Position numbers and translations under genes: made by a program. Shown one piece after another: positions 4,894 to 41,709 of a stretch of 64,000 nucleotides of DNA (position 1 is the first letter of the stretch; the number at the start of each line of letters is the position of its first letter). A model generated the notes under the pieces. That model made no database searches, was not told the DNA's origin, and was given only the letters and a program-made list of their open reading frames with translations. The DNA is from Candidatus Kaiserbacteria bacterium. GTDB taxonomy: Bacteria > Patescibacteriota > Minisyncoccia > Phycocordibacterales > UBA2100. The stretch is from assembly GCA_016217925.1 (NCBI GenBank), contig JACRFK010000003.1, positions 271,656-335,655 of the forward strand. Direction: 5' to 3'.

Positions 4894-5775
4894 TCAATCG
4901 TCAAGGAGACCTAGACGATAAATATCAAAAGAATTCTCGCCCTCGAACATGTCGGAAGGATTCGGGAGGTAGATGCGGCGGCGGGATATCTCGGTGGTTG
5001 CGTCGTTGATGAGCCGGTGAAAGATCTCGAATTCCTCCGAGACGGTTGTGTAGTCGATGATGTAGCGGCGCATTTGCGACGAGCCGTCGGCGTTCTTCCT
5101 TTTCTTGCATTCTTGCACGATAAACCTGCGCACCTCTTTGCCGTACTTTTGTTTGACCGTGTAGTAATTGAATATAGCTTGCATGACGAACAGGGTCTTC
5201 TGCCCGCGGCCCTTGCTGAAGGTGTCCACGAACTTGTGGTCCACGATGTCGAGCGCCCCCGGCTGCAGGCGTGATTCGACGACGAGGTCCGAAACTGCCT
5301 TGATGGGAAGCGGCAGGCCCTCGACATGCGCGAGGGCGACCACCTCGACGCCGAGCACTTTGTGCTTGGGCGCTCGCGCGAGGTAGAACTGAATCGCCTG
5401 CAGATAGTCACGCTCCATGTGAGCACGCTTTTCTTTTTGTGCGCGACGCGACTTTGCTTTGCCGAAATTAATCTCAAAATCCGCAACGTTGCGTAGGTAT
5501 TCGAGCCCCAGCTCCACCGAGCCTTCTTTTCCTCCGGGGGAGGATCCACCTCCGGCGGACCCTATCCCGCCATAATAGTGCTGAAGCGCCACATGCGCTG
5601 CACGACCAACAAGAGAAGAGGGATTGGCGGGTGTATCGTAGACTTTTTCGACGTAGCGCTTGTACCACGCGAGCGGATTGCGCAAAAATGCCATGAGCGA
5701 AGAATGGCTCCAGTGCTGTATGGGCAATGCCGTCTTGAGGCGGGCTTTCTTCTTCATGTGATTTTGCGAAATCAT
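4894..5775 (-). CDS. PD-(D/E)xK nuclease family protein (Cas4/RecB-like fold) carrying the in-frame mini-element
   Basis: N-terminal HWSHSSLMAFLRNPLAWYKRY and a D..D.K block (GALDIVDHKF) typical of PD-(D/E)xK nucleases. Contains GSAGGGSSPGGKEGS, encoded by the element at 5527-5560. Confidence 0.5.
   Translation of the reverse strand: MISQNHMKKKARLKTALPIQHWSHSSLMAFLRNPLAWYKRYVEKVYDTPANPSSLVGRAAHVALQHYYGGIGSAGGGSSPGGKEGSVELGLEYLRNVADFEINFGKAKSRRAQKEKRAHMERDYLQAIQFYLARAPKHKVLGVEVVALAHVEGLPLPIKAVSDLVVESRLQPGALDIVDHKFVDTFSKGRGQKTLFVMQAIFNYYTVKQKYGKEVRRFIVQECKKRKNADGSSQMRRYIIDYTTVSEEFEIFHRLINDATTEISRRRIYLPNPSDMFEGENSFDIYRLGLLDD
5527..5560 (+). repeat. Palindromic mini-element, family A copy (variant with GGATCCACC)
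   Basis: ttttcctccgggggaggatccacctccggcggac; in-frame within the nuclease gene. Confidence 0.7.
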
Positions 5776-8297: not shown

Positions 8298-8831
8298 ATG
8301 GACATTAGAATACGCGACGCGGTGCCGGACGACGCTGAGGCGGTAGAACAAGTGCGCTACCAAGGTTGGCTTGCCACTTACCCGAACGAAGAATTCCGAA
8401 TCACAAGAGAAGACATCAAGGAACTATTCAGGCCCCAGCTCTCCCCTGAAGGTATCGAGAATCGGCGACATAAGATTTCGGAGGTTCAGAAAACAGGACG
8501 GTATGTCGTCGCCAAAGTGGACGGGAGGATTGTCGGCTTCTGTATCCTCATACGGTACGAAGAAAAGAACCAACTGCGCGGCATTTACGTACTCCCCGGC
8601 TACCAGGGTAAGGGCGTAGGAAAGGCGCTTTGGCAGGAGGTCCGCGCATCCATTGACCCGAAAATGGACACCTATGTCGAGCTGGCTGCCTACAACGCCG
8701 TCGCCATCGGTTTCTATTCAAAGTTCGGCTTCAAGGATACCGGCCGCAGATTCAGTAATGAGAGCCAAAAATTGAAAAACGGGGCGAAAATCCCCGAAAT
8801 GGAGATGCGTTTGGACAAAGCGGGACAGTAG
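8298..8831 (+). CDS. GNAT family N-acetyltransferase
   Basis: Motif A (acetyl-CoA binding): LRGIYVLPGYQGKGVGKALWQEV. Confidence 0.65.
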   Translation: MDIRIRDAVPDDAEAVEQVRYQGWLATYPNEEFRITREDIKELFRPQLSPEGIENRRHKISEVQKTGRYVVAKVDGRIVGFCILIRYEEKNQLRGIYVLPGYQGKGVGKALWQEVRASIDPKMDTYVELAAYNAVAIGFYSKFGFKDTGRRFSNESQKLKNGAKIPEMEMRLDKAGQ

Positions 8832-8840
8832 GTATACGCT
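8810..8840 (+). promoter_or_regulatory. Promoter-like motif TTTGGACAAA-N..-GGTATACG before the RT gene
   Basis: See 5961-5993; the -10-like part is a variant. Confidence 0.3.
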
Positions 8841-8848
8841 GCATTTAT

Positions 8849-10429
8849 ATGTCGTTTGGCTTACCGCAAGGTATAATCGATTTTTTTGATGTCGACAAAG
8901 CGATCGCACGAATAAAAAATGACCTCCAATCGGATTTCATTTACGCACCGCATTTGAATGCCATATACGCATTAGCGAAAACCGAACTACAGGCGGGACT
9001 CTTTGGAAAACTTGCAACTGGGACTTTTGACCCAAGTCTACCTGTTACTATTGAGGTGCCAAAAGCATCCGGGCTGGGAAGACCCGGATCCATACTCCTC
9101 CCCTACGAACGGTTAATCTATCAGCTTGTTGTCGATGATATCGCGGTAACTGCGGACCTTAATCTGGACAGGACTAGCGTGTTCAGTAATAAGCTGTTAA
9201 CGGCAGACCCCAATGGGTTTATGTTCGAACCCACGGGGGATTGTTATGCAGAATATAAGACCGCAATAGCAAGGCACGCCCAGAATCCGAGGTTTTCACA
9301 CGTGATACAGACCGACATAGTATCTCATTTTCAGAATTTAAATCAGCACAACTTAATTAACTTACTTACATCAGCTGGATGCAATGCTGACGAGGCAAAA
9401 TTTCTTGAAAGAATGCTTTCTCAACTTGCTGAAAAAAGTTCACGAGGGATTATTCAAGGTGTTATGCCCTCTGACTTCTTGGGGAACTTCTCTCTGTGCT
9501 CGATAGACGGTCAACTTGCCGTCAATGGTCTAACTTTTGCTCGGTACGTGGACGATATCTCCATCTTTCTAAACGGCGAACAGGAATGCCGATCGGTTAA
9601 ATTGAAGTTGTCGCACTGGCTGCGTAAAGAAGGCTTGGACTTGAGTGAAGCAAAAACAAAGGTGCTGCCGGTAGCCGCTTTCCTTCAAGAAGAGACGCGG
9701 GTCGAGCAGATGTTTGATGAAGCAAAGGACGAACTGTCCGGGTCGTTCGATAGAAATGATTTTTATCGATCAGCAATTTCGTGGGACTTTCCGCAGGACG
9801 ACGACGAGGAGGCGGATGACCAAGAGGTGATTTTGTTGGCCACACGAAATCTATTCGACATGAATGTTGATGTTTCAGTAAAGGATAAAATCGATAAGTT
9901 TTGTATTCCAACATTCATCGCATCGTTCGATGATTACGCGATTAATGCTCTCCTAACAAGATTCATTTCTCGACCTCACTTAGCACAGTTATATGCGAAA
10001 TATTTCCGAAGAATGATTACAGTTGGCCATTTGAATGCAGCTCGACTTGAACCATTACTAGCGGATCAAACTATTATTTCGGAATATCAATATATGTGGC
10101 TCTACGCTGCTCTCATGGTTGTAGAGCCAGGCCGAGTCGGCCGACCAAGTATTGCGTTTGCACTCCAACAATACAGAAATGCGAATATTTCCCCTTCGTT
10201 GAGGGCGGTATCTGCAATATTTGTCGCGAAATACGGTACCCCTGTAGAAAAAAGATTAATTAAGGACAGTTATGCCCAAGAACAGTCCGACTACGTGAGA
10301 GCTGCAATTTTATATTCGGCTCGATACTTCACGGCAGCGGAACGTGCAACGTGTTATCGCGCCTGGGGCGGGCATAGCGAACTTAACTCCCTCGTTGTGA
10401 GCGCGTCGAGAAATACTCCCGCCGCTTGA
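8849..10429 (+). CDS. Reverse transcriptase, unclassified (Abi/UG-like), with ~240-aa alpha-helical C-terminal extension
   Basis: RT motifs 1-2 (IEVPKASGLGRPGSILLPYERLIYQLVVDDI), 3 (HVIQTDIVSHFQNLN), 4 (GIIQGVMPSDFLGNF), C (YVDD in FARYVDDISIF) and 7 (KTKVLPV). No maturase, retron VTG or nitrilase/HEPN domain was seen. GC is lower than the surroundings. Confidence 0.75.
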   Translation: MSFGLPQGIIDFFDVDKAIARIKNDLQSDFIYAPHLNAIYALAKTELQAGLFGKLATGTFDPSLPVTIEVPKASGLGRPGSILLPYERLIYQLVVDDIAVTADLNLDRTSVFSNKLLTADPNGFMFEPTGDCYAEYKTAIARHAQNPRFSHVIQTDIVSHFQNLNQHNLINLLTSAGCNADEAKFLERMLSQLAEKSSRGIIQGVMPSDFLGNFSLCSIDGQLAVNGLTFARYVDDISIFLNGEQECRSVKLKLSHWLRKEGLDLSEAKTKVLPVAAFLQEETRVEQMFDEAKDELSGSFDRNDFYRSAISWDFPQDDDEEADDQEVILLATRNLFDMNVDVSVKDKIDKFCIPTFIASFDDYAINALLTRFISRPHLAQLYAKYFRRMITVGHLNAARLEPLLADQTIISEYQYMWLYAALMVVEPGRVGRPSIAFALQQYRNANISPSLRAVSAIFVAKYGTPVEKRLIKDSYAQEQSDYVRAAILYSARYFTAAERATCYRAWGGHSELNSLVVSASRNTPAA

Positions 10430-10438
10430 AGTTTGGTC

Positions 10439-11737
<1,299 letters not shown>

Positions 11738-11868: not shown

Positions 11869-13665
11869 CTACACGTTCTCGTGCAGTTGCGCAATGCGAG
11901 TTGTCAACAGTTTACACACACCCATGAGCCGAGTCACCTCCTCCTCGTCCTTCCCGTTTTCAGCCTTCTTTAGAGCCATGGTAGCGTCATCGAGCTCGGC
12001 GGCGAGAAGTTCTTTGAGGATAACTACGAGCAGGGCTTTGGTCTCGCGTTCAGGGTTCGTACTTTTGCCGTGCAGTTTTTCGGCGGAAAATCGGAGCGCC
12101 TCCCGCTCGCTTTCGGTGAGCGTGGAGAGGCTTGCAAAGGCCTCCGGCCCTATCGCCGTCTCAAGTTCGGTCGCATATGCCGCGACATCTATCGAGGGCT
12201 TCTCCAGTGATTGCTGCCACAGGAGTATGGAGAAAGCCTGGCGGGCGCGGCTCGACGCACGGGTGCTTCGCCACGATGTTTTTGGATCAACTTTCGGCAC
12301 GGAGGCCGGAGCGACCGCACTTGCCGGGCCCGGTGAGGTTGGAAGCTTCCCAAGCGCTTCGCCGACCGCTGATTCGGAGACTCCGAGCCTTCGCGCTATC
12401 TCGTGCACATGCTGTTCGCGCGCTATCGGACTTTGCACATCGGACAGAAACGGCAGCACTATCGTTTCTACCGCGCGCCGGAAGCGATCCTTCTGGGGCA
12501 GATGCTCTTCAAGCACTTCGAGGAGGAATAGGATGATGTCTTTTGAATCTCGTATCGCTTTTTTCCACGCATCCGCGCCTTCTTTTCCTCCTGAGGAGGA
12601 TCCGCCTCCGGCGGACTGAATTAAATCCGCAGGGTCGAGCCCCGTCGGCAGCCGCGCGACTTTTACGTTGAGCCCACCTTGGAGCGCGGTGCGCGCAGCG
12701 CGTCCCGCCGCCTTGATACCCGCCTCATCAGCATCGAGCGCGAGCACGAGGTTGTCCGTCATGCGGCGAATGAGGGCTGCATGCTCAGGCGTAAACGCCG
12801 TGCCCGAGACGGCGACGGTATTCGCCCACCCGGCCTGGTGCGAGGCCAGCAGGTCCATCTGACCTTCCACCAGAACCGCGCAATTGAGCTTCCGGATGGC
12901 GACTTTTGCCCTATCAAAGCCATATAATACGCGGGATTTGTGGAAAAGCGGCGTCTCGGGGCTGTTGAGGTACTTGGGCGCATCGGGCGAGGCTGCCTCG
13001 CCGAAGATGCGGCCGGAAAAGCCGACGACGCGGCCCGCGGAGTCGGCAATGGGAAAGATGATGCGGTAGCGGAAGTTGTCGGTGAGAGAGCCCCGTTCGT
13101 TCTTCTTGGCGACACCCGCTTCGAGCATCTCCCGCTCGGTATATTTTCCTCCGGAGGAGGATCCGCCTCCGGCGGATTTCATTTTCAAATAATCGGAAAG
13201 TTCGGACCAACTATCCCCCGCGAGACCGAGACGGAATGATTGTATGGTCGCATCGGTCATGCCGCGCCCTTTCAGGTACTTCTTCGCCGCATCGTTGAGG
13301 CGTGAGGTATAAAAAATCGTTGCAGTCTCCAAAAGCTCGAACAGTCGCTCGCGTTCGTCTTTCTTCTCTTTGCCGCCGCGTTCGTAGACCAACTCTACTC
13401 CCGCCTTTTCCGCGAGCACTTTGAGCGCACCTTTGAAGTCGAGGCCCTCGATAGCTTCGACAAAAGAAAAAATATCCCCGCCGACGTTGCAGCCGAAACA
13501 GTGATACGTGCCCCGCTCCGGCGACACATGGAAAGAGGGCGTTCGCTCCGCGTGAAAAGGACACCGCGCGCGCAAGGAAGCGCCCGCGCGCTGCAGCTTC
13601 ACGTATTGCGACACCACGTCGACGATCGAGAGCCTATCTTTGATTTGTTGTACCGTATCCGCCAT
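11869..13665 (-). CDS. dnaG: DNA primase DnaG with two in-frame mini-element insertions
   Basis: Zinc finger CPFHAERTPSFHVSPERGTYHCFGCNVGGD; TOPRIM EGQMDLL...ALDADEAG. Insertions SAGGGSSSGGKYTE and SAGGGSSSGGKEGA. Confidence 0.85.
   Translation of the reverse strand: MADTVQQIKDRLSIVDVVSQYVKLQRAGASLRARCPFHAERTPSFHVSPERGTYHCFGCNVGGDIFSFVEAIEGLDFKGALKVLAEKAGVELVYERGGKEKKDERERLFELLETATIFYTSRLNDAAKKYLKGRGMTDATIQSFRLGLAGDSWSELSDYLKMKSAGGGSSSGGKYTEREMLEAGVAKKNERGSLTDNFRYRIIFPIADSAGRVVGFSGRIFGEAASPDAPKYLNSPETPLFHKSRVLYGFDRAKVAIRKLNCAVLVEGQMDLLASHQAGWANTVAVSGTAFTPEHAALIRRMTDNLVLALDADEAGIKAAGRAARTALQGGLNVKVARLPTGLDPADLIQSAGGGSSSGGKEGADAWKKAIRDSKDIILFLLEVLEEHLPQKDRFRRAVETIVLPFLSDVQSPIAREQHVHEIARRLGVSESAVGEALGKLPTSPGPASAVAPASVPKVDPKTSWRSTRASSRARQAFSILLWQQSLEKPSIDVAAYATELETAIGPEAFASLSTLTESEREALRFSAEKLHGKSTNPERETKALLVVILKELLAAELDDATMALKKAENGKDEEEVTRLMGVCKLLTTRIAQLHENV
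12581..12620 (+). repeat. Family A mini-element copy in dnaG
   Basis: tcttttcctcctgaggaggatccgcctccggcggactgaa. Confidence 0.75.
13141..13180 (+). repeat. Family A mini-element copy in dnaG
   Basis: atattttcctccggaggaggatccgcctccggcggatttc, the consensus copy. Confidence 0.75.
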
Positions 13666-14048
13666 GACTCCCCATTATGCGATGCTTCCGTCTGCATTGC
13701 ACGACAATCTCTAATGTGTTAGTTTTCCCGTGGCAAACCCGCCGCAGATTCTCTGGGGAAGAGAACAAATGCCCAAAACATCGTCTCTGCATCCAAGCGA
13801 GATTGGCCAACTGGCCGTAACGATTTCGAGAAACCCTGACGGGACCCTCTCGTACCGGGTTATAGCTGCTCGCCACCCCGTCGGCGCACCCGAGAACTAT
13901 TCAACAGGAGGCCCTGTGCGATCTTTCCAAGCTGCGCTTGCTGAAGTCCGTACGCAGCTCAACTCCTCGTGAACAGCTTGTCGCTGTTCACCGAGAATCA
14001 AAGCGCCGCCCTAACGGACGGCGCTTTGCTCTATTTACACTCCTAAAG

Positions 14049-14106
14049 GGCTACCGCTCAACTGACTCCTTGCGGCTCTGGCTTTCAGGCACTTCTTCGG
14101 GTGCGG
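14049..14106 (-). repeat. Displaced duplicate of the rpoC 3' end (57 bp), candidate att-type direct repeat
   Basis: About 90% identical to 16391-16448. On the minus strand it encodes [17 protein letters not shown]-stop. All differences from the rpoC copy fall at third codon positions. Confidence 0.6.
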
Positions 14107-14114
14107 TTAGGTCT

Positions 14115-14150
14115 ATTGTTTATCTCGTCCGGCCGGATAAATTAAACAAT
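14115..14150 (+). repeat. 36-nt hairpin element ATTGTTTATCTCGTCCGGCCGGATAAATTAAACAAT (direct repeat 1)
   Basis: 8-bp stem ATTGTTTA/TAAACAAT around an inner TCCGGCCGGA palindrome. 7 nt from the stop of the 14158..14745 gene. Confidence 0.5.
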
Positions 14151-14157
14151 AAGAGCT

Positions 14158-14745
14158 TCATTCGGGCAGGAGGCCAAATTCCTTTCGCAGAGGAGCATCG
14201 TACTCAATCGCATCTGCAATGATGTAAAGTAAGTCTTTACCGATGTGCAATTCCGCTTTGAGAAGAGCCACTGCCTCCTCGCAGTCGTACGGATACGCCC
14301 AAACACTGTCTTGTAGACGGACAAAGCCGAACCCTGCAACGATTCCCCGCGCCCGTGCACGAAGGACATGTTTCTTTTCAGGAATATCAAAGATGACCAA
14401 CCGCCATTTGCCATCCCATCGACTCGGCCTGGGCAACGGGCCGAAGGATACAAGAGATCCGAGTCTTTTCCTCCCCTTCTCAGTTATACGCAAGTAGACC
14501 CGGCCATGGTCACGCACGAATTCGACAAAACCTTTATTCTTGAGCCGGTAGGTCGCCTCGCGAACGCGTTGTTTAGGGTCACGCTTTGCGATCCAGTCGG
14601 GGTCAAGATGCTTGAGAAGCCGCAGTGCATTGGGCGCCGCCATCGCTACGAGACCGATGCCGGCAATCGCGAGTCCGGAGAGGATTGCCTGCTCAATCTG
14701 TCCGCGTCGTGTACCTTTCTTCGAGGTCCGCTCCATTCTTCCCAT
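14158..14745 (-). CDS. PaaX-like winged-helix regulator (PaaX_C/Cas2-like C-terminal motif)
   Basis: WDGKWRLVIFDIPEKKHVLRARARGIVAGFGFVRLQDSVWAYP matches the PaaX C-terminal signature. Precisely flanked by the 36-nt hairpin repeats. Confidence 0.5.
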   Translation of the reverse strand: MGRMERTSKKGTRRGQIEQAILSGLAIAGIGLVAMAAPNALRLLKHLDPDWIAKRDPKQRVREATYRLKNKGFVEFVRDHGRVYLRITEKGRKRLGSLVSFGPLPRPSRWDGKWRLVIFDIPEKKHVLRARARGIVAGFGFVRLQDSVWAYPYDCEEAVALLKAELHIGKDLLYIIADAIEYDAPLRKEFGLLPE

Positions 14746-14781
14746 ATTGTTTATCTTATCCGGTCGGATGCGTTAAACAAT
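14746..14781 (+). repeat. 36-nt hairpin element (direct repeat 2), abutting the start codon of the PaaX-like gene
   Basis: attgtttatcttatccggtcggatgcgttaaacaat. Confidence 0.5.
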
Positions 14782-14882
14782 GGAGGTTTTCCACACTAGA
14801 TATACACCCGCAGATGTTCATAAAACAAAGAAGGGCAGCCCGTGAGCCGCCCCTCCTTAACCTCTCAACGTTTTGCGGGTTT

Positions 14883-15350
14883 CTACCGCGTACACCGTGT
14901 CTTGACCCCGGCCGCGATATGCGTGAGGGCATCGACGATTGCTTTTCGCTTCACGTTGCCCTTCTTGAAGACCATCACGGTCTCGGGCGCGCCGCGGAAC
15001 CATCGGACAAGAACGGCGACTTTGCCGTTCTCCACCTCGACAACATGGCCCGATAGATCCGGCTGATGCCGGGGCTCGAAAGCGTGTTGGGACGACCCAA
15101 AGCCTGAACATGCGTGCTTGATGATGTCACGCTCCAGGTCGTCGCTCTTCACTTCTTGCAGCAAACGCAACAATGGGCTTGTCGACACACCAGGCTGTTG
15201 CCAGCCATGCATGCCCATCACACTTTCGGCACCTGTAGCCGAGTCGGGCGACAGTGTGCGCGGCCTGGGCTGCTGTCCTGCAGTCGTCATCTTGGTATTC
15301 CCCCTTTTTTCCGCTGGATAGGGTCTAATTCCCCTCCAGTCCGCAGGCAC
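14883..15350 (-). CDS. Hypothetical protein (islet cargo)
   Basis: ORF only; no motif recognised. Confidence 0.3.
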   Translation of the reverse strand: MPADWRGIRPYPAEKRGNTKMTTAGQQPRPRTLSPDSATGAESVMGMHGWQQPGVSTSPLLRLLQEVKSDDLERDIIKHACSGFGSSQHAFEPRHQPDLSGHVVEVENGKVAVLVRWFRGAPETVMVFKKGNVKRKAIVDALTHIAAGVKTRCTR

Positions 15351-15436
15351 TATGCCACTTAATTACGTATCAGGCAATTACCGCTCATTTGTTATGCTCT
15401 TTTGAGGGGCAATGGTAAATTTGTCGCACTTGAACT

Positions 15437-15793
15437 ATGCCGCCTAAGAATCCTTTAGGGTTTGGAGAAAGAATGTTGCGCCAACGGGCGAAAGAGGGCG
15501 GAAAATCCCGGGAGCAGATGACTGCGGAGCGGGACCAAAAGATGTATATCTCGAATTTATTGCGGGAAAACAAGACAAACATTGACGGGCAGTGGAAAGA
15601 GGCGCGGGACAGGAAAGTGGGCGCCTTTATTATCACAGCTGACCACCTCACAGCGAACGGGCTTCTTTCGGACATGGAAGTAGCCACCGTTATCCGCAGA
15701 TGGATGTTTGACACGTATGGCGACCAACTCGCCCTGGACAGATACGACGGCGCGACCGGGCATATACGATTTCTGGTTTCCGAGTCTGAATAG
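15437..15793 (+). CDS. Hypothetical protein (islet cargo)
   Basis: ORF only. Confidence 0.3.
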   Translation: MPPKNPLGFGERMLRQRAKEGGKSREQMTAERDQKMYISNLLRENKTNIDGQWKEARDRKVGAFIITADHLTANGLLSDMEVATVIRRWMFDTYGDQLALDRYDGATGHIRFLVSESE

Positions 15794-15889
15794 GAACTGA
15801 CCGCAGCCCCCTTTGCGGCAAGCATTAAAATACGCCGCCCCGGGCCTGCTCAGCGGCCCGGGGCGATGTCGAGGTCACATACTGCGAGA

Positions 15890-16312
15890 TTACTTGGCGT
15901 CCATCGCGTCGCACGCTTCATGTGCGAGGCCGCAGGTAAATGCGCGCAGGGCGACATGGACATTGCCGTGCGTGACGTCGCCTTGCATGCGCACCTCGAT
16001 GTTGTGATTGGGCCGATCGCGGTACGGGACGAGAATCATTATCCGCCCCCGCGTGGGGCCCATGCCCCAACCGCATACGACTGCATCGCGCCATGGACCA
16101 CCCGCGTCGGACTTGGGAACGACCGATTCGCGGGGAATATAGTTCTTGGCGTGGCCCATAGCCTTGCGTAGCATCCGGCCCGTGGCTTCGGGTCCGCGGC
16201 ACATCCGCAGTAGCATCGGCGGAATGTGGCCGTCGTACACCTTCCAGTCGGCCTCTGCCGGCGGAGGGTTCGCAGCGGCAGCTGCCGCTGCCGTGGGTTG
16301 CGTTTTGTGCAT
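15890..16312 (-). CDS. Hypothetical protein (islet cargo), Ala-rich N-terminus; possible peptidase-like His/Asp pattern
   Basis: ORF; weak H..D..H pattern (HGNVHVALRAF...LAHEACD). Confidence 0.3.
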   Translation of the reverse strand: MHKTQPTAAAAAAANPPPAEADWKVYDGHIPPMLLRMCRGPEATGRMLRKAMGHAKNYIPRESVVPKSDAGGPWRDAVVCGWGMGPTRGRIMILVPYRDRPNHNIEVRMQGDVTHGNVHVALRAFTCGLAHEACDAMDAK

Positions 16313-16390
16313 TGACGTGTCCTCGGTTCAAAAGCACACAGGGCTATCCCCTGTTGCTCGGGGCTTCTTATATCACATCCGGCGGGCAGA

Positions 16391-16448
16391 GGCTACCGCT
16401 CGACAGACTCCTTGCGACTCTGGCTTTCGGGCACTTCCACGGGTGCCG
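16391..16448 (-). repeat. rpoC 3'-terminal 57 bp, partner of the 14049-14106 direct repeat
   Basis: Encodes the rpoC C-terminal [20 protein letters not shown]. Confidence 0.6.
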
Positions 16449-19400
16449 CAGCGGCGAACTCAGCTTCCATTTGTTCTATCATCGCGTGCTTCTTGCTTCC
16501 CTTGAATCCGGTACCGGCGGGAATAAGGCGGCCAATGATGACATTTTCCTTGAGACCCACGAGGCGGTCCACGGCGCCCGAAACGGCGGCCTCGGCGAGT
16601 TTGCGCGGAGTGTTCTGGAAGGAGATGGCCGAAAGGAAGGACGCACGTGTGAGGGATACTTCGGTAATACCGAGCAGGAGCTGTTTGCCTTTAGCCGGCT
16701 CGCCTTCCACTTCTTTCTGCACTTTGTTGATACGTTCGAATTCGAAGTCGGCGACGATTTCCCCTGCGGAGACCCCCGTGTCGCCGGAAGTCGTGACGGA
16801 TACGCGCGAGAACATCTGTTTGACGATAACCTCCAAATGCTTGCGGCCGGTGGATACTCCCTGGAGCTCGTAGATGCGCGTGATTTCGTTGATGATGTAT
16901 TGCTGTGCACGCTCCTTGCCCGCGAGCAGGAAAAGCTCTTCGAGGTCGGCGGAGCCGTCGGTGAGGAAGTCGCCCTTTTCTACCTTGGCGCCCTTCTTCA
17001 CCAAGATGGTGCGGAGCGGATGCACGCGGTATTCGGTCTCTTTCTTTTGGGCTTTTGCGGTCTTGGCAAGTGAAGCGACATCCGGGACGATGGTGATGAC
17101 CGTCTCAGCTCCGTCCTTCTCGATATCGGCAATGATGCCCGTAACGCGCGAGATGGTGGCGGGGAGCTTGGGTGCGCGCGTCTCGAAGACTTCCTCGACG
17201 CGCGGCAGACCCATGGTGATGTCTCCGCCTGCGGTGGCGACGCCTCCCGTGTGGAAGGTACGCATCGTGAGCTGAGTTCCCGGCTCGCCGATGGCTTGCG
17301 CGGCGATGACGCCTATTGCTTCACCCACGTCCACAATCTCGCCGGTCGTGAGGTCCATGCCGTAGCACTTCTGGCAGACGCCGCGTGCGACTTTGCATGT
17401 CATAGGCGAGCGCACAGTAACTTCTGTCGCCTTGCTTTCTTCGACAGCTTTAGCATCGTCGCGATTCAAGAGGTGGTTGCGCTTTCCGCCGAAGGCGGAT
17501 CCGCCTCTGGCGGAGAAGCCCTCAATATCTGCGGCAAGTACGCGGCCGTTCACGCGGTCGGCAAAAGAGCCGCCGATGTTCTCTTTGCCGGGACGATTGA
17601 TGACGACCCCCTCTTTGGTGCCGCAGTCATTTTCGAGAACGACGACGTCGTGCGCGACGTCGAAGAGACGGCGTGTGAGATACCCGGCGCGTGCCGTGTT
17701 GAGCGCGGTGTCGGCAAGACCTTTGCGCGCACCGTGCGTCGAGATGAAGTATTCGATTGGGGTGAGACCTTCTTTCAAGCTAGAGGTGATGGGGAATTCG
17801 ATGATCTCTCCGCGCGGGTTGGTGATGAGGCCTTTCATACCCACCATTTGGTGAAGCTGGACGACGGAACCGCGGGCACCGGAAGTGATCATGTCGTGCA
17901 CGGGACCGGTGCGGTCGAGCGCGTCAACAACGTGCTTGCGCAATTCGCCGGAGACCTTGCCCCAGATCTCAACCGTCATGCGGCGGCGTTCGTCTTCAGT
18001 GAGAAGCCCTTGATTAAAGTTCTCGAGCTCTTTCGCCGCTTGTTCACGTCCCGTTTTTACCATCTCCTCCTTCACGCTTGGAATGACGATGTCCGAGATT
18101 GCCCAGGTGATACCGGCGTAGGTCGCATAGCGGAAGCCGAATGCTTTTATTTTGTCCAAAATGGCGGGGATGCCGTCGAGACTGTAATGCGTAACGAGAT
18201 TTTGCACCAAGGCGCCCATGCGCTTGTTGGTTATTTCTTCGTTCAAGTACGGGAAGTCGTTGGGAAGGACGGAGTTGAAGAGGAGGCGACCGACGGTCGT
18301 CTCGAAAACTTTGCCTTCGTATTGCCCGTATTTCTTATTTTCGGTCGGGAGCACCTTTATCTTGGCGCGCAAGTCCACCGCGCCAAAATCGTGCGCGGTA
18401 ATAGCGGCGTTAGTCGAAGGAAATGCGCTTCCCTCACCTTTCAGACCATCAACGGACTTCGTCATCCAGTAGCATCCCAAGACGATGTCGAGGAGCTTGG
18501 ATGCGACAACGACGTCGCCGCTTCCTGGCTTCAAGATGTTCTTATTGGCGGACATCATCATGCGCGCCTCCATCTGAGCGGCTTCGGAGAGCGGCACGTG
18601 GACGGCCATCGCGTCGCCGTCGAAGTCAGCGTTGTAGGCCGGACAGACGAGCGGGTGTACCTGGATTGCGTTGCCTTCGATTAAGACCGGGCGGAACGCC
18701 TGGATGGACTGGCGGTGCAGCGTCGGCGCGCGGTTCAAGAGTACGTACTTGTCTTTAATCGCTTCTTCGAGAATCGGCCACACTTCAGGAGCTTCGTCTT
18801 CGATAAGACGGCCCGCGCCGCGGATGTTGTAGGCGAGTTCGCGCGCAAGCAAGCCCTGAATGACGAATGGACGGAAAAGTTCGAGCACCATGTGCTTCGG
18901 AAGACCGCATTCGTCGAGTGCCAAGTCCGGACCGACGACGATGACGGAACGGCCCGAGTAGTCCACGCGTTTACCGAGCAGGTTCTGACGGAGATAGCCG
19001 TGCTTACCTTTGAGGTAATCGGCGAGCGATTTCAGCGCGCGGCGGCGGCCTCCGAGGATGCCCAAGACACCTGCGCCGCGGCGCATGGAATTGTCGAGGA
19101 GCGCGTCCACAGCTTCCTGCAGAATGCGCTTTTCGTTGCGGAGGATGACTTCCGGCGCGTGGATGGCGAGCAATCGCTTGAGGCGATTGTTACGGTTGAT
19201 GACGCGGCGGTAGAGGTCGTTGAGGTCCGACGATGCGTGACGGCCGCCTTCGAGGGCGACCATGGGGCGCAGCGCCGGCGGCACGACTGGAAGACGCGTC
19301 ATGAACATCCACTCCGGGCGCACACCCGCGCGCTGCAAGCTCTCGGCGAGGCCGAGGCGTTTGCGGAGTTTGTCGCGGTCCGCGGCACCCGAGTTTTCGT

Positions 19401-20130
19401 ACTCTTCCTTCACCTTCTTGATGAAGACGTTGATGTCGATATTTTTCAAAATACTGTAGAGGGCCTCGGCGCCGATAGCAGCGCGGAACATCGCGCCGTA
19501 TTTGACGGCAAAGAGGTGATACGCAGCCTCGTCGAGGACCACGCCCTGACGGATAGATTCGATCTCCTTCTTCGCTTTCGTCGCGCGCTCTTTGAGGTCG
19601 GTCTTTATTTCAGCAGTCGCGGCGGCTTTGTTCTTGGTCGCAAATTCATGCTCCAATTCCTTGAGAAGGCGCTCGCGTTCTTTCTCATCGACATGCGTGA
19701 CGATGTAGCCCGCGAAGTAGACGACCTTTTCCACTTCTGCAGCCGAAAGGCCGAGCATAAGCGCGATGCGCGAAGGAATACCGCGCAGGAACCAGATGTG
19801 CGAGACAGGGGTCGCCAAGTCGATGTGGCCCATGCGCTCGCGCCGGACGATGGCGCGGGTAATTTCGACACCGCATTTTTCACAGACGATGCCGCGGAAA
19901 CGGATGCCCCGGTATTTCCCGCAGTAACATTCGTAGTCTTTTTCAGGTCCGAAGACACGCTCGTCGAAGAGACCGTTCTTCTCGGGTCGCTGCGTGCGGT
20001 AGTTGATGGTCTCCGGCTTGGTTATCTCACCAAAACTCCACTCATGTACGCGGTCGGGAGAGGCGAGGCGCATTGCGACCGCTTCGAAGTCCTGTGGGAT
20101 GACGTCTTTTTTACGTTGCATAATTTTCAA
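16393..20130 (-). CDS. rpoC: DNA-directed RNA polymerase beta' subunit with in-frame mini-element
   Basis: [12 protein letters not shown] catalytic motif; zinc finger [20 protein letters not shown]. Insertion [13 protein letters not shown] at 17481-17520. Confidence 0.95.
17481..17520 (+). repeat. Family A mini-element copy in rpoC (variant)
   Basis: gctttccgccgaaggcggatccgcctctggcggagaagcc. Confidence 0.65.
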
Positions 20131-36659: not shown

Positions 36660-36890
36660 GACACCGGAGGGCTGGAGCGCTAAGATTAGCCGTGTGAGGG
36701 ATTGCTCTGGCCACCAACCGGAGTCCCGCCCTTTCTTTAGAAAGAGCGGGAGCGATAGCCTAACCTGACAGAAAGAGTGTCCCGCCCTTTCCGGAGAAAG
36801 AGCGGGAAAACTAGGTGGAACCGCGGTTTAGTGAGATCGCCCTAGTGAGTGTACGAGATTCTCGTGCGTTCACTCGGGCGCTTTTTATTA
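36660..36890 (+). promoter_or_regulatory. T-box riboswitch-like leader of thrS
   Basis: AAACTAGGTGGAACCGCGG at 36808-36826 matches the T-box consensus AATTAGGGTGGNACCGCGG. Downstream terminator-like helix CGCCCTAGTG..CACTCGGGCG + TTTTTATT (36838-36888). Two near-identical upstream hairpins CCCGCCCTTTC..GAAAGAGCGGG. Candidate specifier ACC/ACA at 36764-36770. Confidence 0.5.
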
Positions 36891-38222: not shown

Positions 38223-39635
38223 TTAGGTGCGAGTGATAATGATGCGCGGTGCCTCACCCTCTTTCGAGTGCATGACCACCATCGAGTCCATCGTTGATTT
38301 GGCCGTCGGCGCGACCGGAAGATTCTCCAGCGCGTCTATCTGGATTGGGCTCGGCGTCATCGTTTCGAGAGGAGCCTCCTCAACTTTCGTTTCGACAGGC
38401 GCCGGCACCGTGGCTTCGTGCATCGTCACTTTGCGTGAACCGAGCATCGAACCTACGAGGGTCATTGCACCTCCCTTGTAGTAGACGACGAGGTAGGCAC
38501 CGGCTATCGCGAAGGAGATGAGCGAGAGCCAGTAGATAGCGTTGCCGAAGGGTCCTGCATCGAAGCCCGTGTACGGGATCTGCGAGAGCGAGACGTAGGA
38601 GCCCTGGACCGTGACATACGTGCTGCAGGTATTCGTGCCGCCGTAGCCCGAGACCGTGAGTGTGTAGGTCTTGGAGACATTCGGGCGCACCGCGAGCGAG
38701 CCGTTGGTGGATACCACGCCGATGCCATCAGAGAGCCAAGCGCTCGTGGCACCGCTTGAAGACCACGTGAGGTACGCAGCCTGTCCATTCACTATCGAGC
38801 TCGGAGAAGCCGTGATGGTGCAGTACGCGTTGCTGTAGGTCGGGTACGTCGGATAAATCGGATACGTGGGGTACGTCGGGTACACAGGGTAGGTCGGGTA
38901 GACCGGCTGTTGCTGGTAGACGTACTGTATCGGGTACGTGACGCCTGTGTACACGACAGGAGTGACCGGAGCCGAGTTTACGTTCGTGTTGACGTTGTTG
39001 TTATTGTTCGTGTTCACGATGTTAATCGGACCTCCACCCTGTTGCTGTTGCTGCTGTTGCTGTTGCTGAACCGGGCGCTGTTGCTGAGGAGCAGGATAGC
39101 TCGGGTACGAGGGAGCGTAAGAGGTCGACGGAGCGCGGAAGGAGAACGGCATACTCGGAGTAGGTTTGTAGTTCGGCTGCGAGTAGCTCTGAGTGTCGTA
39201 CGAGCGTTCGGAATACGCTACACCATCTTCGTAGATGTAGTCACAATCGCACTCGTTGTCCCACGTAGTACCTTCGTAGTTCCACGTTGGGTTTTCATCC
39301 CACGTAGTACCTTCGTAGTTCCACGTTGGGTTTTCATCCCACGTAGTTCCTTCGTAGTTCCATGTCGGATTTTGATCCCAAGTAGTACCTTCGTAGTTCC
39401 ACGTCGGAGAATCCGCATAACCAAGGTACCCACCGTTGGTGTCACCACCGGCGTCCCAAGTAGTGCCGTCGTAGCTCCATGTCGGCGTGTCACCACCGGA
39501 GTCCCACGTAGTGCCTTCGTAGTTCCACTCCTGTGCGAAGGCAGACGTAGGGATTGCGGCAAATGCGCCAAAAGCGAGCACCGCCACAGCCAGAAAAAAG
39601 ACAGAAACTGAACTTACTTTTGATGCATTTGTCAT
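38223..39635 (-). CDS. Secreted/surface repetitive protein (signal peptide; PTWNYEGTTWD repeats; polyQ/polyN; YPTYP repeats; Ig-like domain; C-terminal TM)
   Basis: Signal peptide MTNASKVSSVSVFFLAVAVLAFGAFAAIPTSAFA. 39-nt DNA tandem repeats at 39240-39480. IPYTG (LPXTG-like) precedes the C-terminal TM helix. Confidence 0.6.
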   Translation of the reverse strand: MTNASKVSSVSVFFLAVAVLAFGAFAAIPTSAFAQEWNYEGTTWDSGGDTPTWSYDGTTWDAGGDTNGGYLGYADSPTWNYEGTTWDQNPTWNYEGTTWDENPTWNYEGTTWDENPTWNYEGTTWDNECDCDYIYEDGVAYSERSYDTQSYSQPNYKPTPSMPFSFRAPSTSYAPSYPSYPAPQQQRPVQQQQQQQQQQGGGPINIVNTNNNNNVNTNVNSAPVTPVVYTGVTYPIQYVYQQQPVYPTYPVYPTYPTYPIYPTYPTYSNAYCTITASPSSIVNGQAAYLTWSSSGATSAWLSDGIGVVSTNGSLAVRPNVSKTYTLTVSGYGGTNTCSTYVTVQGSYVSLSQIPYTGFDAGPFGNAIYWLSLISFAIAGAYLVVYYKGGAMTLVGSMLGSRKVTMHEATVPAPVETKVEEAPLETMTPSPIQIDALENLPVAPTAKSTMDSMVVMHSKEGEAPRIIITRT

Positions 39636-41151: not shown

Positions 41152-41709
41152 TTATTTTGCGAATGAGATGGCGCGGCCTACCTCGACGGCATGGCCGACT
41201 TCTACCGCGTGCCCGACGTTGACGGCATGGCCGACGCTCTTAGCGCGCCCCACGGATACCGCGTGACCAACGGATACGGCGTGGCCGACATTTACCGCAT
41301 GCCCTACCGAGACCGCATGGCCGGTGGGAACGAGCGCAAAGAGTTTACCGGGTCCAAAGAGGTCTACGGCGTGTGCGATGTCTACGATGTGCCCGACTTC
41401 TACGGGATGCGCGACGTTAACGGGGTGCGCGACGTTAACTCCATAACCGACGCCGATGGGATAACCGACATTCACACCATGACCAACGTTTACCCCATGC
41501 CCTACATTCACACCATAGCCGACACCTATGGGATAGCCGGTAGACGCACCGTATCCGGGCGACGTGGGATATCCAGCATCCGTCGGGTATCCCAAGGGAA
41601 CCGCCACGCCATACGTTTCTATTTCAGGCGGATCGGTGATGGCGGCGTATGAAAGCGGCGCCAAGCCGACGCAAATAATTATGGCGAGTGTTACAAGCCC
41701 TTTTTTCAT
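41152..41709 (-). CDS. Secreted histidine-rich hexapeptide-repeat protein
   Basis: Signal peptide, then (V/A)GHAVN-type repeats ~20 times (VGHAVNVGHAVSVGHAV...), i.e. 18-nt DNA tandem repeats. Confidence 0.55.
   Translation of the reverse strand: MKKGLVTLAIIICVGLAPLSYAAITDPPEIETYGVAVPLGYPTDAGYPTSPGYGASTGYPIGVGYGVNVGHGVNVGHGVNVGYPIGVGYGVNVAHPVNVAHPVEVGHIVDIAHAVDLFGPGKLFALVPTGHAVSVGHAVNVGHAVSVGHAVSVGRAKSVGHAVNVGHAVEVGHAVEVGRAISFAK

Follow-up and report, generated by a model that had tools for sequence, protein, structure and literature searches.

What is a second copy of the end of rpoC doing 2.3 kb downstream of the gene itself? The question is raised by a stretch of 64,000 nucleotides (nt) from a Candidatus Kaiserbacteria bacterium (GenBank contig JACRFK010000003.1, positions 271,656 to 335,655), which we call the window. 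In the window, rpoC is separated from dnaG by an islet of about 2.3 kb, and the far end of the islet repeats the last codons of rpoC. We refer to the end of the intact gene as the working tail (T1 in the window) and to the displaced copies as fossil tails or fossils. An earlier note on this DNA took the two copies for the attL/attR pair of a single integrative element. The comparisons reported here point to a stack of at least three layers instead of one element. In this Kaiserbacteria lineage, the spacer between rpoC and dnaG is a hot spot of recombination, with modules stacked at the rpoC stop codon. The 56-nt repeat appears to pair the current tail, T1, with a fossil from an earlier event and not to mark the two ends of one element. 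We tentatively regard repeated homology-anchored acquisition of DNA, with a non-homologous join in the resident tail, as the best explanation.

The two copies of the direct repeat span 14049-14104 and 16391-16446 and match at 50 of 56 nt (89%), in agreement with the roughly 90% identity given in the earlier note. The chance expectation for a repeat this good in 64 kb is about 4e-13. Read on the minus strand, both copies encode AP(E/V)... and then a stop codon. The upper copy contains T1 (16393-16446, minus strand), which is the last 17 codons and the stop of rpoC. The true end of the gene, which encodes 1245 amino acids (aa), is at 16393-16448 (minus strand). The lower copy (14051-14104, minus strand) likewise has 17 codons and a stop. 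The homology extends 2 nt past the stop codon and has its 5' limit at GCACCC, and the fossil with these 2 nt occupies 14049-14106 (minus strand). The note had placed all differences between the copies at synonymous third positions. This is the case for four of the six (CCT/CCC, AGC/AGT, TCA/TCT, and GTT/GTC). The other two fall at positions 2 and 3 of one codon, GAA vs GTG, and exchange Glu and Val. The note had named a longer paralog ending in the lower copy as an outcome that would count against its proposal. This is not the case: a TAA closes the frame of the lower copy six codons upstream, and a palindrome and a PaaX-like gene directly precede it. An assembly artifact is unlikely, since many other assemblies show the same architecture, among them an independent contig from the Logan assembly (L081).

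We compared 166 related loci, of which 80 came from genomes, 80 from metagenomes, and 6 from protein look-up. Assembled contigs were the material examined throughout. The order rpoC-dnaG-rpoD is conserved across the related loci fetched. The window rpoC (16393-20130, minus strand) encodes a beta' subunit that is 95% identical to the Kaiserbacteria RpoC in L001, and its C terminus is 95% identical to that in MFKY01000004. The conserved downstream neighbor is dnaG, for primase (11869-13665, minus strand). The nearest relatives are L089 and L093, with 96% RpoC C-terminal identity. These two, and also L088 and L087, have rpoC, a single tail, and then dnaG. Their spacer is 84 to 86 nt long and contains a terminator. 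The 2.3 kb in the window is therefore an insertion at the 3' end of rpoC, as the note had supposed.

Homology between the window and the empty-site relatives ends at the rpoC stop codon (16394) and restarts at 13678. The variable region is 13679-16392, slightly larger than the part bounded by the repeat. It includes a possible small open reading frame (ORF) of 80 aa between the fossil tail and dnaG (13730-13972, plus strand; from the ORF list), which is not in the empty-site relatives. Beside this ORF, the stretch 13743-13637 of the window can be aligned to L028 (72%), where a small ORF on the opposite strand occupies the matching position. The comparison of GC and codon usage that the note had recommended was run and is uninformative. 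The GC content is 0.561 for the islet vs 0.553 for the window, and the GC content at third codon positions (GC3) is 0.57 for the PaaX-like gene, 0.73 for orf4, and 0.72 for rpoC. Neither measure makes the islet stand out.

The modules of the islet occur apart and in other orders among the relatives. The orf3 module (15387-15793, plus strand) consists of a 118-aa ORF (15437-15793) and the 50 nt upstream of it. It is found alone directly behind rpoC in L001, L097, L095, and L004. The window at 15790-15387 aligns to L001 11266-11674 and to L097 7496-7904 with 66% nucleotide identity, and the alignment stops at 15387. The orf2 module (14826-15377, minus strand) contains an 88-nt leader, orf2 (14883-15290, minus strand, ATG at 15290, 135 aa), and a terminator hairpin (14826-14859). 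Two short contigs, L085 and L086, carry an rpoC tail, the 88-nt leader, a homolog of orf2 (70% identical), and the same terminator, and this terminator is related to the rpoC terminator of the empty-site relatives. The window at 15386-14845 aligns to L086 64-600 at 80%, starting 9 nt before the end of the L086 rpoC stop. Because this alignment begins within a full rpoC tail, the window keeps GAGCGGTAA (Glu-Arg-stop; 9 nt, 15378-15386, minus strand) as a third, nearly erased tail between orf3 and orf2. The block from upstream of the first palindrome (pal1) of the PaaX-like gene through the fossil tail (14796-14044) is common to L028 (71%) and L016 (77%). The order rpoC, PaaX-like gene, fossil tail is found in L028, L090, and L098.

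Because the modules occur separately and a third tail lies between them, the two 56-nt copies probably stem from different events. T1 would have come with the youngest layer, and the fossil would belong with the PaaX-like block. A single 2.3-kb element with an attL/attR pair does not fit the 9-nt tail inside it, the separate modules in relatives, the specific tie of the fossil tail to the PaaX-like cassette, or fossil 5' ends that vary from 9 to 109 nt. The note's account of the gene content was borne out: one PaaX-like gene, with a match to PF20803 at 4.6e-17; three hypothetical ORFs; and no integrase. No match to Pfam, PADLOC, or NCBIfam was found for orf2, orf3, or orf4. Only 4 homologs of orf2 were found among 1.8 billion representative proteins, the best 70% identical, and they belong to no family. 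Only 3 homologs of orf3 are on record, again with no family. The sole match of orf4 among 5.8 billion proteins was itself (P0121, NCBI HY971_01755).

The fossil copy is 92 to 96% identical to the working tails of L093, L087, L088, L095, and L089, and it matches the common sequence across >20 relatives of the same tail type. T1 has private changes relative to these relatives, namely, TCT GTC and the GTG that encodes Val. It looks like a diverged or imported replacement, and in this respect the earlier note appears to have been right. In L090 and L098, the working tail and terminator match the empty-site relatives and look native. Which copy is the imported one may differ between events. A target duplication of fixed length made by staggered cuts was rejected: the fossil lengths vary, and the derived changes are in the working copy and not in the fossil.

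Fossil tails recur behind two genes. The tail of each locus was used as its own probe, and a match was counted only if it reached the stop codon. By this measure, 8 of 134 loci have a fossil behind rpoC and 16 of 97 have at least one behind rpoD, where the fossils number 24 and form arrays of up to three. Every fossil runs to the stop codon, and the 5' ends vary (9 to 109 nt at rpoC and 30 to 100 nt at rpoD). Three chance-level alignments never reach the tail end and serve as an internal control. The modules are 0.4 to 2.4 kb in size, and at five loci only 23 to 75 nt separate the working tail from the fossil. The cargo includes Fic/Doc, PemK/MazF, BrnT, HicA, CopG, ArsR/MarR regulators, DUF559, and many ORFs without a family. 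No integrase, resolvase, or transposase was found in the ~60 islet and gap ORFs scanned (about 55 from related loci and the 4 of the window). The junctions carry unrelated filler of 5 to 50 nt, and no sequence motif is common to the cargo-fossil junctions. Other gene ends in the same loci yielded ~5 tail copies, one of them in trmD. Relative to these other ends, tail copies at rpoC and rpoD are enriched roughly 30- to 95-fold, with a rough estimate as the denominator.

Cargo turns over between close relatives. L126 and L156, for example, have nothing in common in their cargo. Their rpoD genes are 92 to 97% identical until the last 60 nt, which are 73% identical. An AT-rich, synonymously recoded rpoD tail (the last 66 nt) is present in L033, L107, L108, and L127, which belong to different subclades. 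Its GC3 is about 0.4, compared with ~0.7 upstream, and in every case a normal-type fossil comes after it. One and the same 37-nt terminator stands behind both the working rpoD tail and the last fossil of L016, which suggests the import of ordinary chromosomal DNA from a relative.

Several further observations concern tail duplications. The rpoD-tail arrays are in L004, L006, L016, L026, L033, L094, L107, L108, L121, L126, L127, L129, L132, L153, and L156. They separate small modules that encode Doc, MazF, BrnT, and HicA toxins, a DUF559 nuclease, and orphans. No fossil tail follows rpoD in the window itself (10439-11737). At other genes, the tail of a PD-(D/E)XK nuclease is duplicated in L087 (15215-15293 and 16053-16131; 79 nt, 81%, 760 nt apart), and the trmD tail is duplicated in L047 (3526-3667, 41 nt). 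The JACROD01 assembly breaks between the working rpoC tail, at the end of L023, and the PaaX-like cassette with its fossil, at the start of L172. This break was probably caused by the tail repeat.

A hairpin of ~31 nt (CCCCGTTAGAGGC-loop-GCTCTCTAATGGGG) lies inside rpoD fossils. It was seen in L033 (14845-14953), L127 (3610-3718), L016 (8150-8257), L129 (11895-12005), L132 (11865-11974), and L108 (6731-6811). It sits at the same codon boundary (IRQ|IEAK) in five genomes. The loop varies freely, and the stem shows one compensatory change, from GAG/CTC to GAA/TTC. The hairpin has no occurrence elsewhere in about 2 Mb. L153 and L019 have other hairpins at the IRQ|IEAK spot, and L126 has a hairpin elsewhere in the fossil. 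In L107, a terminator hairpin starts the cargo that is inserted at this spot. A test of whether hairpins precede fossils was not significant overall (Mann-Whitney, p = 0.27). Nine of the 32 junctions fell below the 10th percentile of controls, and 5 of those 9 share ancestry.

The probably oldest layer of the islet contains the PaaX-like gene (14158-14745, minus strand). It encodes a 195-aa protein with a winged helix and a Cas2-like domain, without the PaaX C-terminal domain. The Cas2-like domain is the region that matches Pfam PaaX_M (PF20803), and it also weakly matches Cas2 profiles (4e-6 and 4.6e-5). An AlphaFold2 model from 36 homologs had a predicted local distance difference test (pLDDT) score of >90 over residues 60-190. 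The best Foldseek match in the PDB was Escherichia coli PaaX (8a39; E value, 2e-4; probability, 1.00), followed by Rv0674 and then Cas2. The protein scored 41.8 bits against TIGR02277, the full-length PaaX equivalog, compared with a cut-off of 264.6 bits, and its 195 aa compare with a profile of 279 positions. It has 1135 homologs, mostly in Parcubacteria. The Cas2-like Asp, D120, is invariant across the 36 homologs. Exact-protein look-ups of this protein and of DnaG gave no match, probably because of start-codon differences.

Two palindromes bracket the gene. The first, pal1 (14745-14784, 38 to 40 nt), overlaps the start codon. The second copy, pal2 (14112-14151), begins 6 nt after the stop codon. 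Every genome examined that carries the gene has a 38-nt copy of the palindrome on each side of it. Only 2 copies are present in the window, with 0 expected by chance, and across ~2 Mb of related loci the palindrome was found only at PaaX-like genes. A dispersed repeat was rejected on these counts. A dif/Xer-like site was also rejected, as the arms are 16 bp apart and those of dif/Xer sites are 6 to 8 bp apart. The arms differ between six protein variants (TATTGTTTA, TCTTGTTTA, TATTGCTTA, AAGTTTATAAC, TGTATCAA, and TATCCACA), a pattern consistent with cognate operators. PaaX itself is known as a repressor whose operators are palindromic. Most likely, the PaaX-like protein represses its own gene by binding to the palindromes on either side of it.

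The limits of the PaaX-like cassette coincide with the palindromes. L090 and L016 are homologous only from pal1 to pal2 (88.5%). L090 and L098 are 93.5% identical from rpoC to the outer edge of pal2 and then share nothing until dnaG. The alignment of L090 1013-1735 with the window runs as far as 14114, which is the outer edge of pal2 and the limit of cassette homology. The cassette occurs at four different loci, namely, behind rpoC and at obg, TatD, and miaA/tRNA. No duplicated miaA tail was found at L169, and no duplicated neighbor tails were found at the obg or TatD loci. Behind rpoC, the cassette is present in 11 genomes, always on the rpoC strand. A fossil rpoC tail follows pal2 by 5 to 50 nt in 10 of the 11, with 7 different junctions. 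The fossil is of the host's own tail type, and this holds in three different types (one of them EEAEVEQMKA). L016 is the exception, with an ESQ-type fossil and a working tail, STERDRDTVER, like that of its sister L009. In L053, a tandem duplication of ~255 nt (8757-9011) covers the dnaG promoter and the first 68 codons of dnaG. It adjoins an inverted, divergent PaaX-like cassette with its own palindromes (TGTATCAA...TTGATACA).

The remaining features of the islet are hairpins. A weak hairpin with a T-run (16338-16354, minus strand; -16.8 kcal/mol, z of -0.65) was found by a terminator scan 40 nt after the T1 stop. It is followed by orf4 (15890-16312, minus strand), an orphan of 140 aa with a GC content of 0.64. 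The same scan found a GC-rich hairpin of 12 pairs between the convergent orf4 and orf3 (15835-15866), which is likely a two-way terminator. A strong terminator hairpin lies directly after the fossil tail (13997-14030, minus strand), with a 17-bp stem and then UUUGAUU. Its folding energy is -29.5 kcal/mol (z of -4.6), and 0 of 200 shuffles were as stable. An Rfam search of 13000-17000 matched no family.

Homology-anchored acquisition would proceed as follows. DNA from a related cell would bring in the 3' portion of rpoC with its entire tail and whatever followed it in the donor. On the left side, ordinary RecA-dependent homologous recombination would take place inside rpoC. On the right side, homology would end at the stop codon, and a non-homologous join would form inside or just after the resident tail. 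The resident tail would be severed from its gene and pushed downstream. Long repeats would be lost again by recombination, so that the surviving fossils would be short and diverged. In naturally transformable bacteria, homology-facilitated illegitimate recombination is well established as a route (PMC2884548). We infer the following order for the window. The oldest layer would be pal1, the PaaX-like gene, pal2, the 17-codon fossil tail, and the strong terminator. The leader and orf2 would form the next layer, inserted after the stop of the then-current tail. The youngest layer would be T1 with orf4 and orf3, and it would have cut the previous tail to 9 nt.

Several points weigh against this explanation. 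The site preference, at roughly 30- to 95-fold, is very strong. Where the PaaX-like cassette lies behind rpoC, the break is always at the outer edge of pal2 (10 of 11 genomes, 7 junctions, and the fossil 5 to 50 nt away), and such a constant edge is not predicted by random joins. The recoded rpoD tail shared by the distant L033, L107, L108, and L127 looks like a dedicated element lineage. The fossils do not behave as old neutral relics: between genomes they differ by 2 to 4 of 42 nt, whereas the PaaX-like genes beside them are ~50% identical at synonymous sites, which is saturation. Because of this disparity, the fossils either were copied from working tails recently or have been homogenized by conversion. 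The native-looking working tails of L090 and L098 may mean that the fossil was the imported copy there, with the homology anchor in dnaG. Finally, an integrase may be encoded elsewhere in the genome.

The last point leads to a possible though doubtful alternative, in which site-specific cassettes carry an rpoC or rpoD tail as their att site and a recombinase acts in trans, from the genome or from a helper element. Small circular cassettes would then build arrays like integron cassettes or like tandem islands at tRNA genes, and the fossils would be att sites. The strong preference for two gene ends and the tandem arrays fit this alternative, as does the fact that every repeat ends at the stop codon. 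So do the recoded rpoD tail of distant genomes, always paired with a normal-type fossil, and the conserved hairpin, with its one compensatory stem change and its same rpoD-fossil position in 5 genomes. The toxin-antitoxin and orphan cargo resembles chromosomal cassette arrays, and elements that restore housekeeping 3' ends are known, together with integrase-less derivatives (PMC7192596, PMC4701971, PMC5704250). However, about 30 modules yielded no recombinase, and the 5' boundaries of the repeats (9 to 109 nt at rpoC and 30 to 100 nt at rpoD) leave no constant core. About half of the fossils have no nearby hairpin (overall p = 0.27), the parts of the mosaic islet in the window are also found apart from one another, and the cargo-fossil junctions have no motif in common. 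In an undescribed Kaiserbacteria cassette system, the last codons of the essential genes rpoC and rpoD would be the docking site, cassettes would bring a synonymously recoded tail, and the PaaX-like protein and its two palindromes would be a minimal self-mobilizing member that inserts again and again into the rpoC tail and duplicates 30 to 65 nt of the target. We consider such a system unlikely.

It is more unlikely still that the PaaX-like cassette is itself mobile, with the protein or a break at the palindrome driving insertion into the rpoC tail and duplicating the target. The cassette forms a discrete unit with the palindromes as its exact limits (L090 vs L016 and L090 vs L098), it is present at 4 loci (rpoC, obg, TatD, and miaA/tRNA), and its palindrome arms differ between the six protein variants. 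In 10 of its 11 rpoC-linked copies a fossil of the host tail type, in three types, stands beside pal2, and D120 is invariant across the 36 homologs. The obg, TatD, and miaA copies nevertheless have no duplicated gene tail, and fossils occur without a PaaX-like gene in the rpoD islets and in the L094 islet behind rpoC. A PaaX-type repressor with palindromic operators would explain the palindromes without mobility. To our knowledge, Cas2-like domains acting alone have no recombinase activity, which also speaks against this mobility. A local duplication kept for a function, such as termination, a regulatory RNA, or a DNA site, seems highly improbable. Such a function could account for fossils that are better conserved than the synonymous sites of the neighbor gene and for the strong terminator directly after the fossil. 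It would not account for decayed fossils (those of L090 and L100 contain an internal stop, and that of L159 contains a Trp), for fossil lengths from 9 to 109 nt, or for the absence of a fossil from most relatives. Neither an Rfam family nor a conserved small ORF was found that would support it.

Other repeats in the window were noted. A palindromic repeat of ~33 nt (TTTTCCTCCGGAGGAGGATCCGCCTCCGGCGGA) has eight copies, at 5522, 11797, 12578, 13139, 17477, 25106, 44296, and 56525 (each about 41 nt). Seven of the eight lie within protein genes, two in dnaG and another in rpoC among them, and are read in frame as SAGGGSSSGGK-like inserts. The copies vary among relatives: some are present in L001, L089, L097, and L088, and none are present in 9 others. 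This repeat resembles the in-frame palindromic elements of Rickettsia. Tandem repeats at 39220-39527 (39-nt period) and 41170-41524 (18-nt period) lie inside large minus-strand ORFs, which probably encode repetitive surface proteins. A 29-nt palindrome (GTCCCGCCCTTTCTTTAGAAAGAGCGGGA) has two intergenic copies (90%) at 36723-36751 and 36779-36807, 56 nt apart.

The candidate phyla radiation (CPR), or Patescibacteria, to which the uncultivated Kaiserbacteria belong as part of the Parcubacteria, has tiny genomes and few described mobile elements, and how its members acquire genes is poorly known. Our results suggest that the ends of rpoC and rpoD, which rank among the most conserved of all genes, serve as landing pads for very small modules. 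These modules often carry toxin-antitoxin genes and lineage-specific orphans, and they stack and leave fossil tails that can be dated. If uptake is homology anchored, DNA-scavenging cells would build accessory content without dedicated recombinases. If a recombinase acts in trans, the modules would represent a new cassette system. Fossil tails also break assemblies, as in JACROD01, where the contigs end between the copies, and they can mislead annotation.

The note stated that no elements targeting rpoC were known to it, and in the literature we likewise found no description of rpoC or rpoD as targets or of such elements in CPR/Patescibacteria. The nearest integrative systems are integrative and conjugative elements (ICEs), integrative mobilizable elements (IMEs), and cis-mobilizable elements (CIMEs). 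These insert at the 3' end of a conserved gene, supply a replacement end, are flanked by direct repeats, accrete in tandem, and have integrase-less derivatives (PMC7192596, PMC4701971, PMC5704250, PMC7563491). As with these elements, in streptococci and generally, the window insert is flanked by repeats of the target 3' end (50/56), and an empty single-copy site is present in L089, L093, L088, and L087. Unlike ICEs and IMEs, the 4 window ORFs and ~55 related ORFs include no recombinase family, which is absent in CIMEs too. The Kaiserbacteria modules also differ from all three in their size of 0.4 to 2.4 kb, in their inconstant repeat boundaries, and in the islet being a stack of modules.

Integron cassette arrays share with these islets the modules of 0.4 to 2 kb, the orphans and toxin-antitoxin pairs, a repeated boundary, and sometimes a hairpin. 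In contrast to integrons, no IntI was seen in or beside the islets, nor any attC with the GTTRRRY core, which the hairpin GTTAGAG does not fit. Hairpins are missing at ~half of the junctions, and the boundary is a copy of the host gene tail. The PaaX-like protein resembles the PaaX family in its winged helix, its Cas2-like middle domain (PF20803), its best structure match (E. coli PaaX), and its adjoining palindromes. It differs from PaaX in its 195-aa length, the lack of a C-terminal domain and of a paa operon, and the presence of its own palindrome at either end of the gene.

Minimal mobile elements of Neisseria exchange cassettes between conserved flanking genes. The islets resemble them in having small variable segments between conserved genes. 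They resemble homology-facilitated illegitimate recombination (PMC2884548) in having one homologous anchor, a non-homologous join, and no dedicated recombinase. The duplication of the anchor-gene tail and the repeated use of the same few dozen nucleotides are atypical of both.

The orphan modules of rhs-CT and cdiA-CT are displaced 3' fragments that keep an upstream coding piece, have no start signals, and lie in arrays with companion genes (PMC3967940). New ends displace old ones by recombination in these systems (PMC3967940). Their variable end is a toxin domain under diversifying selection with an immunity gene, and their orphans can be reactivated. Here, the displaced end is a stretch of 17 RpoC residues that appears to be neutral, at the terminus of an essential subunit, and the payload consists of unrelated downstream genes. 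As in rhs and cdiA, the window fossils at 14049-14106 and 15378-15386 keep coding sequence and their own stop but have no start, and rpoD has arrays of up to 3. Among described systems, this displacement of old 3' ends in rhs and cdiA comes closest to the mechanism proposed here.

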